Shown in pieces: positions 12,166-60,563 of a stretch of 64,000 nucleotides of DNA (the stretch's first letter is position 1; the number at the start of each line of letters is the position of its first letter). Origin of the DNA: Cyanobacteria bacterium LVE1205-1 (GTDB lineage Bacteria > Cyanobacteriota > Cyanobacteriia > CAIUCS01); contig CP089922.1 in assembly GCA_041879355.1 (NCBI GenBank), forward strand, positions 2,912,498 to 2,976,497, written 5' to 3'. A model generated the notes under the pieces. That model was not told the origin of the DNA and ran no database searches. It saw only the letters and a program-made list of their open reading frames with translations. Both the position numbers and the translations under genes were made by a program.

Positions 12166-12285
12166 AATAATGGATCCAGAGTATTCCAATGTTGCACGTT
12201 TGCCCTCATTCCTAACCCCTTCCCTTAAAAAGGGAGAAATGGAAAACGAATTTAGGGTGAAGGCTGCAAAATTGGGATGCACCCT
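12166..12285. repeat. MITE family B copy (diverged). Its ends resemble GAGTATTCCAATGTTGCACG and GCTGCAAAATTGGGATGCACC.
   Basis: It shares the GCAAAATTGGGAT(G/A)(C/T)AC terminal sequence and GGCAAACGTGCAA subterminal sequence with copies at 56021-56110 and 60148-60276, and the palindrome at 29903-29936. Confidence 0.5.
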
Positions 12286-19334: not shown

Positions 19335-19439
19335 AGAATGACTCCTTGAACAAGAAAATTTCGTACTTAATTATACCATTCACCAAGGAACTTTTTACCT
19401 TCTGTTGAACTCTCCCTCTGTTAAAACGAGAGGGATTCT

Positions 19440-20478
19440 AAAACAAAATCGCCAGTGAAATGGGGATTCACGCAACCCAGATTACTCAATGGAAAAAACA
19501 GGCTCAGGAAGGACTCAAGGAGATCTTTGCGGATCGCCGAGGGAAGAGCCAGAGCCAGGAACCCTTAATTGAGAACCTTTACCAGAACATTGGTCGGCTC
19601 CAAGTGGAACTGGAGTGGTTGCAAAAAATCTGGTCTTACCTCTTGAATCAAAGCGGGAACTCATTGAACCCGCAAACCGAGAGATCAGCATTGTGCGTCA
19701 GTGCGAATTGCTGGGACTCAATCGAAGTAGCGACTACTACGAAGCAGCCAGGGAAAGCTCACATAAGGAGTACCTGATGGGAAAGTTGGATGAGCAGTAT
19801 ACCCAAACTCCCTTCTACAGGGTATTGGGAATGACGGAAGTCCTGCGAGCCCAAGGAGAAGAGGTCAATCCTAAACAAGTCCGTCGTCTACTCAGGGTAA
19901 TGGGTTTAGAAGCTATCTATCCCAAACCCAAAATCTCATCGCTAGGTGAGAATAGTCGTCGCTATCCCTATCTGCTCAGGGAAAAAGCCATTGAGCGTCC
20001 GAACCACGTTTGGAGTACTGACATCACATACATTCCACTGGACAAGGGATTTATTTACCTTGTAGCGGTGATTGACTGGTACAGCCAGTATGTCCTCTCA
20101 TGGGAAGTCTCCAATACCCTGGATGTCCACTTTTGTCTGGATGTTCTGGAAAGTACTCTCTCTCAAGGGATGCCAGAGATTTTCAATACCGACCAGGGCA
20201 GCCAATTTACCAGTCTTGCTTTTACTGACCGTCTACTCAAAGGAGGGATAACAATCAGTTAGGATGGGCGTGGTCGAGCCCTAGACAACATTTTTGTGGA
20301 ACGGATTTGGCACTCATTGAAATACGAGGAGCTGTACCTAAAGTCCTACAGGTCTGTGCCAGAGGCAATTCAAGGGATTGGGGACTATTTCAGATTTTAT
20401 AACCACGATCGTTTACATCAGTCGTTGGATTATCAGACACCGGCTATGGTTCACAGAAAAGGCAATGCCTCCTTGTAA
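19440..20478 (+). mobile_element. IS3-family insertion sequence remnant. orfA is 5'-truncated, and orfB (DDE integrase) is internally frameshifted.
   Basis: ORF 19460-19777 is an orfA leucine-zipper part (GIHATQITQWKK...LQVELEWLQK). ORFs 19615-20262 and 20296-20478 are the DDE core (HVWSTDITYIP...DNIFVERIWHSLKYEE). About the first 30 aa of orfA and the left inverted repeat are missing. Confidence 0.75.
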
Positions 20479-20518
20479 TGGATTCGCATTGGGTCTTCCT
20501 GTCCTATGTCCAGCATCA

Positions 20519-20640
20519 ACCAGCAAATACCTTACAAGGAGGTGATGTAATAATGTAACACCAACAACACATGCACTGCTAAGCGAGATTACTTCTTAAA
20601 TTCACTCTTTTTCTGTCTTGACATTGGGGAGTACCATGGG
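20519..20640. repeat. 120-bp repeat element, copy 1. It carries an AGGAGG ... ATG-TAA start-stop motif.
   Basis: About 80% identical to 33537-33655. It begins CCTTACAAGGAGGTGATGTAATAATGTAACA and ends TTGGGGAGTACCAT. Confidence 0.5.
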
Positions 20641-20774
20641 GGGAGGTTGCTTAAAGAGAGGAGTATTAAAGTATTAAGGATGTTAGTCGGTGGTGGCGGT
20701 GATTCTTGTTCCATTAATTAACCAGCGAAATTCAATAACATAAAAATAGACCAAATTAGAGGAAAAAATCATCT

Positions 20775-21404
20775 ATGGCAACTACATCCGAAGACGTATG
20801 GCGACTTTTAGCCGAATTAGCAACTGCTCAAGCTGAATTAACTGCTTCTCAAAAAGAAACTGACCTACTATTGAAGGAAGTCAGTCAACAACAGAAGGAA
20901 AACGAGCGACGACAACAGGAAAATGCCCAACAACAGAGGGAAAATGCCCAACAACTCAAAGAATTAGGACGGCAAATTGGTGGACTTGGTGCCAAATTCG
21001 GCAGCTTTACCGAAGGACTTGCCCTTCCTTCAATGGAAACGATTCTCAGACAACGGTTGGGTATGGAAGTGATCAGTCCCAGTGTGCGAGTGAGTAAAGA
21101 TGGAAAACACCTAGAAATTGATGTTCTTGCCTATACTAATGGTGAGCTAAATACTGCCTATATCGTCGAGGTTAAAAGTCATGGTAGAGAGGAATCCATT
21201 ACACAATTAATAAGTATTTTGCAACGGTTTCGCAGCTTTTTCCCTGAACACAAAGATAAAAAACTCTATGGCATATTAGCGGCGGTGGATTTATCCCCAG
21301 AATTACGGGAAAAAATTCTACAAGAAGGGTTTTATGTGGCTCGGATTCATGACCAGGTATTTGAATTAGATATTCCCGATACTTTTCAACCTCAAGCTTA
21401 TTAA
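20775..21404 (+). CDS. Paralog 1. N-terminal coiled coil plus C-terminal Hjc-like PD-(D/E)xK nuclease-fold domain (possibly DUF3782-type). Function unknown.
   Basis: 209 aa. The N-terminus is heptad-rich with (QQQRENA)n. The C-terminus reads HLEIDVLAYTNGELNTAYIVEVKSH, matching D-x15-E-x-K of PD-(D/E)xK nucleases. Confidence 0.6.
   Translation: MATTSEDVWRLLAELATAQAELTASQKETDLLLKEVSQQQKENERRQQENAQQQRENAQQLKELGRQIGGLGAKFGSFTEGLALPSMETILRQRLGMEVISPSVRVSKDGKHLEIDVLAYTNGELNTAYIVEVKSHGREESITQLISILQRFRSFFPEHKDKKLYGILAAVDLSPELREKILQEGFYVARIHDQVFELDIPDTFQPQAY
20911..20951 (+). repeat. In-frame 21-bp tandem repeat (CAACAGAGGGAAAATGCCCAA), 2 units
   Basis: It encodes (Q)QQRENA within paralog 1. The same array has 4 units in paralog 2. 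Confidence 0.8.
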
Positions 21405-21504
21405 AACATCAAAGGCGATCGCTTTCACCCTGATGTTGTGAGGGATGATTGCTTGTATTTAGCGGTAAATATCCTTTCAATACCCAATATCAAGAACAAT
21501 CACC

Positions 21505-21659
21505 CTGGTTGACTGACAAAAGTTGTACGCCCTCACCCCCAACCCCTCTCCTAGGGGGCGAGGGGAGCCGAGCCACCCCTCCGCTTCCCTCGCCCATCGG
21601 GCGAGGGCTAGGGTGAGGGCTTTCAGGGTTTTGGCTGAGAAGTTTTGTCAGTCAATCAG
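21505..21659. mobile_element. MITE family A, copy 1. 17-bp TIRs CTG(G/A)TTGACTGACAAAA; 9-bp TSD ACAATCACC at 21496-21504 and 21660-21668.
   Basis: The TIRs were read directly. The internal sequence is a long GC-rich palindrome (CCCTCACCCC...GGGTGAGGG). It is absent from the otherwise identical downstream region of paralog 2. Confidence 0.7.
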
Positions 21660-21901
21660 ACAATCACCTTTTTTGTTTCCATGCAATTAGTTTCTCCAGC
21701 GAGTGGGGTTAATTGACAATGGACAATAGATAACTATTCACTATTCACCAAAAAGGCGATCCCAGGGGGGAGGTTGCTTAAAGAGAGGAGTATTAAAGTA
21801 TTAAGGATGTTAGTTGGTGGTGGCGGTGATTCTTGTCCCATTGATTAACCAGCGAAATTCAGTAACATAAAAATAGACCAAATTAGAGGAAAAAATTATC
21901 T

Positions 21902-22573
21902 ATGGCAACTACATCCGAAGACGTATGGCGACTTTTAGCCGAATTAGCAACTGCTCAAGCTGAATTAACTGCTTCTCAAAAAGAAACTGACCTACTATTG
22001 AAGGAAGTCAGTCAACAACAGAAGGAAAACGAGCGACGACAACAGGAAAATGCCCAACAACAGAGGGAAAATGCCCAACAACAGAGGGAAAATGCCCAAC
22101 AACAGAGGGAAAATGCCCAACAACTCAAAGAATTAGGACGGCAAATTGGTGGACTTGGTGCCAAATTCGGCAGCTTTACCGAAGGACTTGCCCTTCCTTC
22201 AATGGAAACGATTCTCAGACAACGGTTGGGCATGGAAGTGATCAGTCCCAGTGTGCGAGTGAGTAAAGATGGAAAACACCTAGAAATTGATGTTCTTGCC
22301 TATACTAATGGTGAGCTAAATACTGTTTATGTCGTCGAGGTTAAAAGTCATGCTAGAGAGGAATCCATTACACAATTAATAAGTATTTTGCAACGGTTTC
22401 GTAGCTTTTTCCCTGAACACAAAGATAAAAAACTCTATGGCATATTAGCGGCGGTGGATTTATCCCCAGAATTACGGGAAAAAATTCTACAAGAAGGGTT
22501 TTATGTGGCTCGGATTCATGACCAGGTATTTGAATTAGATATTCCCGATACTTTTCAACCTCAAACTTATTAA
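21902..22573 (+). CDS. Paralog 2 of the coiled-coil / PD-(D/E)xK-like gene (tandem duplicate)
   Basis: 223 aa, near-identical to 20775-21404 including about 135 bp of upstream sequence. It differs by 2 extra 21-bp repeat units and a few substitutions (A->V, I->V, G->A next to the EVK motif; A->T at the C-terminus). Confidence 0.6.
   Translation: MATTSEDVWRLLAELATAQAELTASQKETDLLLKEVSQQQKENERRQQENAQQQRENAQQQRENAQQQRENAQQLKELGRQIGGLGAKFGSFTEGLALPSMETILRQRLGMEVISPSVRVSKDGKHLEIDVLAYTNGELNTVYVVEVKSHAREESITQLISILQRFRSFFPEHKDKKLYGILAAVDLSPELREKILQEGFYVARIHDQVFELDIPDTFQPQTY
22037..22120 (+). repeat. In-frame 21-bp tandem repeat, 4 units (1 imperfect + 3 perfect)
   Basis: GACAACAGGAAAATGCCCAA followed by 3x CAACAGAGGGAAAATGCCCAA. 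Confidence 0.8.
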
Positions 22574-22935
22574 AACATCAAAGGCGATCGCTTTTGGTCT
22601 GATGTTGTGAGGGATGATTGCTTGTATTTAGTAGTAAATATCTTTTCAATTAGTTTCCCCAGCGAGTGGGAACCAGATACTCCAGCAATCGGAACTGACG
22701 TTGAATATGAATGGACAACATTATCTCCGCCTTTCCAATCACTCCCAAAACCAATATAGTTTATACTATCAACCAATGAATACTGAATTTATTAAGAAAT
22801 TTAATATATACACGGACACTTTATAGTATTAACACGGTTTAATTTAAGGCTGATTGGGTTCAGGGGTTAAGTTTAACTTGATTAAAAAAGCGATTGCCCT
22901 AGGAGTCAACCATCAAAGCTGGGATTCTAAAACAG

Positions 22936-24102: not shown

Positions 24103-24256
24103 CTGATTGACTGACAAAACTTCTCAGCCAAAACCCCGAAAGCCCTCACCCTAGCCCTCTCCCGATGGGAGAGGGAACCGGAGGGTGGATCGGCTCCCCT
24201 CGCCCCCTGGGAGAGGGGTTGGGGGTGAGAGCGTACAACTTTTGTCAGTCAACCAG
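24103..24256. mobile_element. MITE family A, copy 2 (inverted relative to copy 1). 9-bp TSD GTTGCTGAG at 24094-24102 and 24257-24265.
   Basis: TIRs CTGATTGACTGACAAAA / TTTTGTCAGTCAACCAG, with an internal GC-rich palindrome homologous to 21505-21659. Confidence 0.7.
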
Positions 24257-24365
24257 GTTGCTGAGTTTGGTGGTACCACTTCACAGCAAAAGTAGCATAC
24301 TATAATTTCAGGTATTCCTCTAATAAATATAAATACCGAAAACGGATGTTAATACGTTTATTTTT

Positions 24366-27418: not shown

Positions 27419-27818
27419 CCGGTTGGACGGTAATCATAAGGTTTCATTTGATTAAATACTTCAGAGACTTTTAAGTTGAGTTGGCTAAATTCAAATGATG
27501 GGGTATTAGAACAGCAGTTGAATTTACGCCGCAAAGTATTAGTTGACACTCCCGCGCTTAAAACCCGAGGGATTCTAGAGGTTGTCTCGGAGGCTAAAGC
27601 CGTCCACCGAGACGATTTCTAGTTACTCAGTCCGCTATTGCTAAGGATCCGAGAAAATCGAGATTTCGCGGAGTGTCATGCACCACATCTCTCAGAAGAA
27701 GCAAACCCATTACAGGAGAACCCTTCTAAAGAACTGAGAGACAGTCGTTGGTTTTCACCCTCCGGCTGAAGCACGGAGGCTCTCAACTTGGACTAGGTAG
27801 CTGCGGAGAAGTTGGTCG

Positions 27819-33235: not shown

Positions 33236-33536
33236 GGTTCCCTGAACTCTAGGGCAACCGCACCCAAGACTTTATATATCAATAAAAGCTAATTCCCAGT
33301 TATAATACTCCCTATATTTCGGACAGGCTAATAAGAGAGTCTCGCTGCTAATAGACTAAGAAACTATACGGAGGATATTGCAAGCCATGCAGCGAAAATG
33401 ATATAAGCAAGTAGCGGTGTATAATTGAATATAAGATGTGGGGCGGTTGTTCTAGCCGTAAATAGGCTGGAAGCATGTTCCACTATCTAACAGTTGATTA
33501 CTTGGAGCCATGGCAGTTTCCTGTCTTCTGTCGAGT

Positions 33537-33655
33537 CAAACTGCTAATACCCTACAAGGGGGTGATGTAATGAATGTAACATCAAGGACTAATGTCCTAC
33601 TCAGCGAAATTACTGCTTAAATGTATTCTTGCTGTCTTGATATTGGGGAGTACCA
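33537..33655. repeat. 120-bp repeat element, copy 2
   Basis: CCCTACAAGGGGGTGATGTAATGAATGTAACA...TTGGGGAGTACCAT. See 20519-20640. Confidence 0.5.
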
Positions 33656-33750
33656 TACAGATTCGGTACTTGAAAGCTTTTTATGAAAGGCTCTCATTGG
33701 AATATCTATTCTGTGAAGGCAGTCAATTACTATAAAGCCGTCCTAAAAGG

Positions 33751-46669: not shown

Positions 46670-46932
46670 ATTACTATTATCTATGTAGATCTTATCAAGA
46701 GTATTGAGAAGTCAACTTAGAAGAAAACAATCAATTTATCAATACTATGATTAGTGTTAGGACAACTTGAAACCCCATCAATGATAAAATTGCCTCCTAG
46801 TATGGCACCACTTACCCTCAATGCCTCTCCTAAACTGTAAGGACAATCTATCAATTAATTGATAGCGTGCTTACTAATTATTAAAATGTCTTTGGTAGTC
46901 CTAAACAAGCAAGAATAGGAATTGGTTAGGGT

Positions 46933-51693: not shown

Positions 51694-51944
51694 CGCACTA
51701 TATATGGTGTACCTCGCTATTAAAAACACTAGCTTAGAAGATCTTTATTCTCAATAAGCCTTAACTAATGAGAATTTTTGCAATAAGTCACTGGAAATTG
51801 GCTCTTGTTGATATGTTAAGTTTTGGGTGCGGTTGCCCTGGTGCCCTAGTATCTTTATCTCCAGAAAGGAAACAAGATGTTCTATTATATTAAGGTAGAA
51901 TATCTTTTTTCTAGGCTTTATCTAGTTCATTTTGGTTGAAAGGT

Positions 51945-55871: not shown

Positions 55872-56020
55872 ATCCAATGTATTGGAGGTTTTACGTTCAA
55901 TTCCAATTCAATTGGGAGGAGGGCGACATGAACTCCCATTGTTGGAGTTACTGCCCATCCATTGTCAAGTTGATTTAATGAACATCCTTGAAGAGTTTCA
56001 AAAAAATAATCGCTTCTAAG

Positions 56021-56110
56021 GGTGCATCCCAATTTTGCAGCCCTCACCCTAAATCCCTCTCCCTTTTTGGGAGACGAGGTTAGGGGATGAAGGCAAACGT
56101 GCAAAATTAG
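56021..56110. repeat. MITE family B copy (right TIR truncated)
   Basis: GGTGCATCCCAATTTTGCAG ... GAAGGCAAACGTGCAAAATT. Confidence 0.5.
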
Positions 56111-56173
56111 AATATGTTTTTAACCTTAACCCTAAGTCTCCACAGACTGAATGTCCAATTACATGAAAGCAGC

Positions 56174-60147: not shown

Positions 60148-60276
60148 GAGTACATCCCAATTTTGTAGTCCTCTCCCCAAGTCCCTCTCGAGAGGGACTT
60201 GGAATCTGCTTCCCCTTCTCCCTTTCTGGGAGAAGGGATTAGGGGATGAGGGCAAACTTGCAAAATTGGGATACTC
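60148..60276. mobile_element. MITE family B, most complete copy. About 20-bp TIRs GAGTACATCCCAATTTTGTAG / CTTGCAAAATTGGGATACTC.
   Basis: The TIRs are reverse complements. The interior has two hairpins (CCAAGTCCCTCTCGAGAGGGACTTGG; CCTTCTCCCTTTCTGGGAGAAGG). Confidence 0.55.
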
Positions 60277-60563
60277 TCTTTGAAAGTACAGAAAGAGAAT
60301 AAGCCATCTGCAGATTTGGATAAACTGTTAAGAATCACCCTACTTCTAGGACAGTGAGTATGTCAAAATCATATAAAATCAAGGAGAAGTTCTTAGTAAC
60401 CACTAACGCTTTCCCATTCTTGGGTCTAAAAACTACTTTTTCATCGCAACCGTTCACTTCCCCTGGAAATGGAGTTGGCAGGTGTAGTCCGCGTCCCTTT
60501 CTATGGGGGAAAATGTGAACAATTCCATCCATCAATTCCTAATTTAGTAAAAGGTAAAAACCT

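Follow-up and report, generated by a model that had tools for sequence, protein, structure and literature searches.

The right-hand end of an IS3-family insertion sequence in two decayed copies in a cyanobacterial genome, with a candidate start-stop core

The closest described systems to the locus reported here are the insertion sequences IS911 and IS2, which have an orfA/orfB transposase with its frameshift window, imperfect terminal inverted repeats, and promoter hexamers split between the ends, the −35 at the right and the −10 at the left, so that they are united when the ends abut (PMC3299598). For IS2 it has been shown experimentally that the circle junction builds a strong promoter for the second transposition step (PMC3299598), and for IS911 the original paper on its junction promoter is cited there. 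The element described here resembles both in all of these features but differs in that its two hexamers are exact consensus, its tips are TA...TA instead of TG...CA, and orfB is followed by a 3' untranslated region (UTR) of 100–250 nt, whereas theirs runs into the right inverted repeat (IRR). Further relatives, ISPpy1 from Psychrobacter maritimus pKLH80 and unnamed IS3 elements of Moraxella osloensis, have near-identical tips (TATAATACTCCC... and ...GACATTGGGGAGTACCTTA or ...ACATTA) and OrfB proteins of ~59–60% identity; unlike the present element, their orfB stops ~30 nt from the end, and they have neither the long 3' UTR nor the Shine-Dalgarno (SD)/start-stop core that is discussed below.

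That core has its nearest counterpart in the start-stops of E. coli, such as those in yecJ and hslR, which consist of an SD-like sequence, an AUG and an immediate stop, and for which retapamulin Ribo-seq gave measured occupancy with a small effect on the host gene (bioRxiv 10.1101/520783). The E. coli start-stops lie inside genes and out of frame, whereas the candidate motif described here lies in the 3' UTR of a transposase gene. Since a start-stop permits no peptide, any function of such a site must lie in ribosome binding itself.

The repeat and its two copies

A preliminary description of the window, which is the whole 64,000-nucleotide stretch of DNA that was analysed, had proposed a 120-bp repeat in two copies about 80% identical. 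The identity was borne out by local alignment, with 114 of 143 columns (79.7%) identical between 20496-20637 and 33518-33656 (a MAFFT view was also made), and the repeat is real, but its start had been placed too far to the right, as the likeness begins ~20 nt further left and extends over ~140 bases. The proposed common 3' end was also correct: the 14-mer TTGGGGAGTACCAT is exact in both copies, occurs in the 64-kb window only at 20624-20637 and 33643-33656, and is the tip of the right inverted repeat. When an intact relative was compared with the window by BLAST, copy 1 was matched with E = 5e-42 and copy 2 with E = 8e-84, and thus the likeness of the copies is homology and not chance. The repeat is not free-standing: an IS3-family insertion sequence ends in these ~140 bp, and two decayed copies of it are present. 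We give a probability of about 0.93 to the reading that the repeat consists of the 3' UTR and the right inverted repeat at the right-hand terminus of such an element. An IS-derived end had been among the options first offered, and indeed the repeat forms the conserved terminus of intact IS3-family elements elsewhere (loci L040, L042 and L025); this removes a false lead, since what might have been a new regulatory RNA is the end of a transposon.

Copy 1 had been placed between an IS3 remnant and a pair of duplicated genes, and was found to be that remnant's own end. The remnant, type 1, is a 5'-truncated and frameshifted IS3-family copy on the plus strand (19442-20637), which shares 93.6% identity with L042 over 1202 nt and 81% with the intact IS of L040. 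Its plus-strand pieces were placed on the 369 positions of the NCBIfam model NF033516 (transpos_IS3), with an orfA fragment (19460-19777) at positions 24-86 and two pieces of orfB, 19615-20262 and 20296-20478, at positions 87-304 and 317-368; the middle ORF piece scored 167.7 bits against a cutoff of 160, and the transposase fragments also match Pfam rve and HTH_21. As OrfB reaches profile position 368 of 369, orfB ends naturally at 20478 (stop codon 20476-78), and the repeat region begins directly after it. The 3' untranslated right end (20479-20637, plus strand) therefore comprises copy 1 and ~20 nt upstream of it. The same tail of 159–161 nt follows orfB in L002, L042, L025, L043 and L028, and the tail adjoins the orfB stop in the window, in these independent loci and in L040. 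In copy 1 a dead, 5'-truncated IS has thus kept its right end intact, and the annotation is corrected in that 20479-20637 belongs to the IS3 remnant; no intact IS copy was seen within the window.

The whole element could be followed in relatives. A metagenome scan with the core pattern, followed by BLAST, recovered L042, L025 and L040, of which the first two are ~93% identical to the window IS over ~1200 nt and have the left end present, while L040 holds, at its positions 721-2185, an element of ~1465 bp with intact orfA (102 aa) and orfB (293 aa), whose overlap lies at an A10 run. HTH_Tnp_1 and rve domains are carried by the relatives. In L042, L025 and L040 the repeat region comes after orfB, and the element ends in GGGGAGTACCAT(A) and starts with TATAATACTCCC.... 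The two-frame transposase of the IS3 family is present (orfA with HTH, orfB with DDE rve, an A-rich overlap), and so are the terminal inverted repeats, which are imperfect and expected to span ~20–40 bp in this family. IS3-family tips are usually 5'-TG...CA-3', but here they read TATAAT... and ...CCAT(A). The same tips are found in ISPpy1 and the Moraxella relatives, which NCBI annotates as IS3 family, and L049 ends in ...CCTCA; the TA...TA tips are a peculiarity of the clade and no ground for exclusion from the family. Target-site duplications of 3–4 bp are expected in the family. Duplications of 3 bp surround L059 (GAC) and L064 (AAC), and none was found round the window copies, L042, L025 or L044; varied boundary choices gave inconsistent results. 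The A-run in the orfA/orfB frameshift window (~19625) has different lengths, A6 in the window, A8 in L025, A9 in L042 and A10 in L040, which could be due to decay, to assembly error, or to transcriptional slippage being used instead of ribosomal frameshifting. Three copies of an 87%-related IS (L044, L045 and L047) have three different left flanks and a right flank that is identical over >150 nt; passenger DNA, a preferred target repeat or recombinant contigs may explain it.

The right boundary of the element was placed in two ways. A scan with TTGAYATTGGGGAGTACCAT over one genome per species gave 10 matches, 7 of them in a single Prochlorotrichaceae metagenome-assembled genome (MAG). Six of these seven lie 32–33 nt from a contig end, and all six carry the last 52–53 nt of copy 1 without a difference, with flanks after ACCAT that differ (seven flanks); identical ends with differing flanks are the signature of a multi-copy repeat bounded at ...ACCAT. 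The seventh match, L002, has a partial orfB, a stop codon and the 161-nt tail followed by unrelated DNA, as in the window. In addition, a tandem duplicate in the window (from 21765) matches the sequence from 20638 on and not before, which independently places the boundary after ACCAT. The last base of the IS is ambiguous, either ACCAT or ACCATA.

Copy 2 (33518-33656, plus strand) does lie upstream of ureD, at 95 nt, as had been described, but it belongs to a longer stretch of IS origin, beginning at 33301. This unit, type 2 (33301-33656, plus strand), is a 356-bp internal-deletion derivative of a sister IS with both ends and no transposase. In BLAST against L040, 33301-33405 corresponds to IS positions 2-106 (89.5%) and 33406-33656 to positions 1199-1465 (85%), so that most of orfA and orfB has been deleted internally. 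What is left comprises, on one side, the left repeat, a leader and orfA as far as its start and six codons and, joined to this, the last orfB codons, a 248-nt 3' UTR and the right repeat. The orfA start codon and its first six codons, identified by sequence comparison with intact relatives, occupy 33387-33405 on the plus strand up to the deletion junction at 33405/33406, and as a result of a C-to-T change this start now reads ATG CAG CGA AAA TGA. Copy 2 is the right part of this derivative, which has lost nearly all of orfA and orfB, and 33301-33656 is to be annotated as a previously unrecognised IS deletion derivative upstream of ureD; the unit may be a mere in-place deletion. No target-site duplication was found round 33301-33656, where the flanks are AGT and CAG. 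An unrelated 50-nt repeat (33251-33300), inverted at 51790-51839 with 86% complementarity, has its end precisely at 33300, in agreement with the left boundary of the IS. From this pair an "empty site" for copy 2 had been considered and was dropped, since the repeat merely ends at the IS boundary; a reading of the region upstream of copy 2 as the inverted-repeat partner of the 3' block was likewise rejected, as the true left end lies 215 nt further upstream.

It is very improbable, in our view, that the repeat exists in its own right as a mobile or regulatory unit, whether as a MITE family or as a small RNA gene, and lies beside IS3 remnants by chance. Such a unit would be in keeping with copy 2 being found without transposase in front of ureD, and with the several deletion derivatives that exist in metagenomes (L019 and L023); however, all copies found are connected with orfB or with IS ends, no target-site duplication flanks copy 2, and the deletion junctions of L019 and L023 differ from that of copy 2, which argues against a single amplified MITE. 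The type 2 unit is like MITE-like IS derivatives in being short, in having both inverted repeats and no transposase, and in being mobilisable in trans in principle. It differs from them in its missing target-site duplication and in that no amplification with the same junction was seen: instead of many like copies with target-site duplications the window has one copy only. The proposal of a small regulatory RNA found no support either. Rfam 15 at gathering thresholds returned one tRNA only over the whole window and nothing over 20400-20800 at E <= 10, promoter and terminator scans were negative within both copies, the short ORFs of the two strands lack conservation, and no copy was found apart from the IS. 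Two such ORFs, of 41 aa on the minus strand (20589-20714) and of 47 aa on the plus strand (33592-33735), were set aside as neither is common to both copies, and the idea that the core holds a −10-like sequence (TGTAAT or TAACAT) was given up for want of both conservation and a −35. Searching both copies by blastn against 72,556 plasmids gave no match.

Inverted repeats and putative split promoter hexamers

The IRR of copy 1 lies at 20612-20637 on the plus strand with TTGACA at 20618-20623, a placement based on the MAG contig ends, the tandem duplicate and Proteobacteria; in copy 2 it lies at 33631-33656 with TTGATA at 33637-42. The IRR tip also follows an IS3 orfB in the proteobacterial loci L009 (a Nitrosomonadales MAG), L064 and L065, and is present in Moraxella osloensis plasmids and in ISPpy1 of Psychrobacter. 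Within the orfB remnant of the L009 contig, at 1150-1190, there is a second, diverged IRR-like sequence (…GGCAATGGGGAGTACCATAC), which suggests nested or rearranged IS copies. The left terminal inverted repeat (IRL), TATAATACTCCCTATATTTCGGACAG, is retained in the window by type 2, copy 1 having lost its left end, and occupies 33301-33326 on the plus strand with TATAAT at the very tip; its start is common to L042, L025, L040, L044–47, L059–61, ISPpy1 and Moraxella. The two tips are imperfect inverted repeats of each other (left TATAATACTCCC, right GGGGAGTACCATA), and ~16 of 26 positions match between the IRL and the reverse complement of the IRR, TATGGTACTCCCCAATRTCAAGACAG. Further inside, a subterminal inverted-repeat block, AGCGAGATTACTTCTTAAA in copy 1 (20582-20600, plus strand) and at 33603-33621 in copy 2, mirrors a left block, AAGAGAGTCTCGCTGC (33333-33348, plus strand), as seen by comparing the ends of L040, L044 and L059; in L059 the left and right blocks match over ~20 nt (GTTAAGATAGAAA(A)TCTGC). 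A reading of CATCAACCAGCAAAT as an IHF site was rejected as it is off the consensus.

The right end thus carries TTGACA (TTGATA in copy 2) 14–15 nt from its tip, and the left tip begins with TATAAT. Nearly all lineages examined, including ISPpy1, Moraxella and ISGlo6, keep the positions of the hexamers, as TTGACA, TAGACA or TGGACA for the −35 and as TATAAT, TATAGT or TATGAT for the −10. By analogy with the IS3 family, the terminal inverted repeat would be the site that the transposase cuts and joins, and the subterminal block, being present at both ends, is probably a second transposase-binding site. Were the ends to abut in a transposition circle or a tandem dimer, a junction spacer of 2–3 bp would give TTGACA-N17/18-TATAAT, a consensus promoter that could drive the transposase. 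We infer both the circle-junction promoter and the binding of transposase for this IS from the sequence of its ends, and the split of TTGACA and TATAAT between them would make this uncharacterised IS3 clade an unusually clear example, at the sequence level, of how a junction promoter is laid out.

The Shine-Dalgarno and start-stop core

Approximately 40 nt of the repeat, the SD/start-stop core, go beyond what the function of an IS end explains. Both copies have the strong SD and the double ATG TAA that had been pointed out, but the spacing given for the first ATG did not hold, as it lies 2 nt after GGAGG. In copy 1 the core spans 20536-20558 on the plus strand, with AAGGAGG at 20536-42 and ATG TAA at 20545-50 and 20553-58, and in copy 2, on the same strand, AAGGGGG at 33556-62 is followed by ATG TAA at 33565-70 and 33574-79, all read from the sequence. 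The copy 1 core contains AAGGAGGTGAT, which is complementary to the usual 3' tail of 16S rRNA. The second ATG is at a workable distance of 10–11 nt after GGAGG or GGGGG in both copies, and in both the second ATG TAA has the form of a start-stop, an SD-like sequence 4–12 nt upstream of an AUG with an immediate stop. It is 85 nt from the IS end in copy 1, and the start-stop ATG is at 84–86 nt in types 1 and 2; the core as a whole sits in the transposase 3' UTR.

Relatives were fetched by OrfB protein similarity alone, which avoids the bias of a search with the core, and gave 11 lineages with 66–87% OrfB identity to L040. Six of the 11 have an SD-like sequence, a spacer of 5–8 nt, an ATG and a stop within 3 codons, with the ATG 86–92 nt from the right end, against 0.02 such lineages predicted by dinucleotide shuffles; as the lineages are related, this test excludes independent chance and indicates shared descent, not selection. 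Strict start-stops are found in L059 (GGGAGGaaagaaATGTAG), L072 (GGGGGGaagatATGTAG) and L056 (GGAGGttcatATGTAG), L049 and L057 have ATG AAT TGA or TAA, and L048 has ATG TAT AAT CAT TAG. The spacers between SD and ATG vary (AAAGAA, AAGAT, TTCAT, AAACT, TGTCGGT and CAATTTTA) while the SD, the ATG and the stop stay. The motif also stands in three frame relations to orfB in L059, L056 and L072, following directly after the orfB stop in the first and coinciding with the last codon plus the stop in the other two. The ancestral arrangement had an SD-like sequence with a start-stop or mini-ORF directly after the orfB stop. In L059 (lineage P0087) the orfB frame, read by eye, is open from the TAA stop to the end of the IS, ~33 codons, so that read-through of the stop codon would continue beyond the element. 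Five of the 11 lineages (P0004, P0060, P0063, P0078 and P0112) have lost the motif or have it in degraded form: in L044 (P0004, 87% OrfB identity) it has become CTG TAA ... ATA TGA, and it is absent in L062, L068, L069 and L071. ISPpy1, Moraxella and ISGlo6 have no such UTR at all, their orfB extending to the IRR, and there is no motif. Its loss in several lineages means that the motif is dispensable.

The region can also fold. A stem-loop is predicted at 20468-20542 on the plus strand, in which the arm 20468-20487 (CCTCCTTGTAA..., the last orfB codons and the stop) pairs with the arm 20523-20542 (...TTACAAGGAGG, the SD), the two being inverted repeats of 85% complementarity. The stem is present in the minimum free energy (MFE) folds of the window copy, of L042, where 19 of 20 pairs form, and of L044, where the arms are different (GCACCTCC/GGAGGTGC) and GCACCUCC pairs with GGAGGUGC. 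In both type 1 and L044 the orfB stop and the SD are held apart by an insertion, and the fold pairs the end of orfB with the SD. The end of orfB, CCUCCUU..., resembles the 16S rRNA tail and is in this sense anti-SD-like, and the predicted pairing has the classical layout of translational coupling. Among the compared lineages no compensatory double changes were found in the hairpin arms, only one-sided substitutions, and the hairpin therefore stays a predicted structure.

One explanation of these observations, which would add to the assignment of the repeat to the IS end and not compete with it, is that translation does take place at the SD and start-stop on the transposase mRNA. The SD would catch ribosomes as they complete orfB, or new 30S subunits, which would start at the ATG and stop at once, and a ribosome kept on the 3' UTR could protect the mRNA or limit translation into flanking genes; in lineages with a long UTR the SD would be masked by its pairing with the end of orfB and exposed only during orfB translation, which would amount to translational coupling. 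The retention of the motif in six OrfB-selected lineages against the shuffle expectation, the divergence of the spacers round a constant SD, ATG and stop, the three frame relations, the orfB-end/SD hairpins in the folds of type 1 and L044, and the existence of working start-stops in E. coli (bioRxiv 10.1101/520783) are all consistent with it. The losses in five lineages and in ISPpy1, Moraxella and ISGlo6, a shuffle result that reflects shared descent only, and the lack of an evident benefit to the IS, however, weigh on the other side, and we regard a working translation site as possible, with the odds against it.

The stem-loop offers a different account, in which GGAGG owes its retention solely to its place as the 3' arm of a structure, in RNA or in single-stranded DNA, that closes over the orfB stop, for example as a 3' stabiliser of the mRNA, and the adjoining ATG-stop codons are incidental in AT-rich sequence. 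Besides the near-complete stem of L042, matching stems of other sequence in L044 and in type 2 (GCCTCC...GGAGGC) speak for it. The short-UTR elements L059, L056 and L072, however, have the SD 3–10 nt after the stop with no partner arm and nevertheless keep SD and ATG, the arms show no compensatory changes between lineages, and the fixed position of the ATG is left unexplained; we consider this account unlikely.

Returning to the translation site, that the SD and mini-ORF after the transposase gene are functional at the level of the clade is, judged from the sequence comparisons, doubtful. Its most elaborate form would be a mostly cyanobacterial IS3 clade in which the SD and a start-stop or mini-ORF of 1–3 codons serve as a translationally coupled "ribosome parking" site, returned by the hairpin to the stop in the long-UTR members, and acting in cis on the transposase mRNA or on outward expression; we consider this proposal rather improbable. 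To our knowledge, insertion sequences have not been described with a regulatory feature of this sort, and if functional the motif would add a new form of cis control to these elements and offer a natural system in which to study bacterial start-stops. In the window itself both copies are relics, and their cores probably do nothing, as copy 1 has no left end and a broken orfB, and copy 2 has no orfB.

Further repeats in the window

The IS remnants lie among other repeats. A tandem duplication of ~1.13 kb (20638-21764 and 21765-~22600) starts exactly at the right end of the type 1 IS, and each unit holds one DUF3782 gene (20775-21404 and 21902-22573), with numbers of QQQRENA repeats that differ. 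The 13-mer GGGATTCTAAAAC is present at the truncation point of the IS (19432-19444) and just past the second DUF3782 gene (22921-22933), with 0.21 occurrences expected by chance, and the block of IS remnant and duplicated genes may be bounded by direct repeats; GGGATTCTAAAAC is also part of a small hairpin-like repeat found at 19409-19440 and 27546-27577. Finally, a palindromic element of ~160 bp is present in two inverted copies, 21501-21659 and 24103-24260, 2.4 kb apart, with related pieces at 12178-12285, 46790-46829, 56019-56114 and 60150-60277, and together with these short dispersed repeats it is probably a separate MITE-like family.
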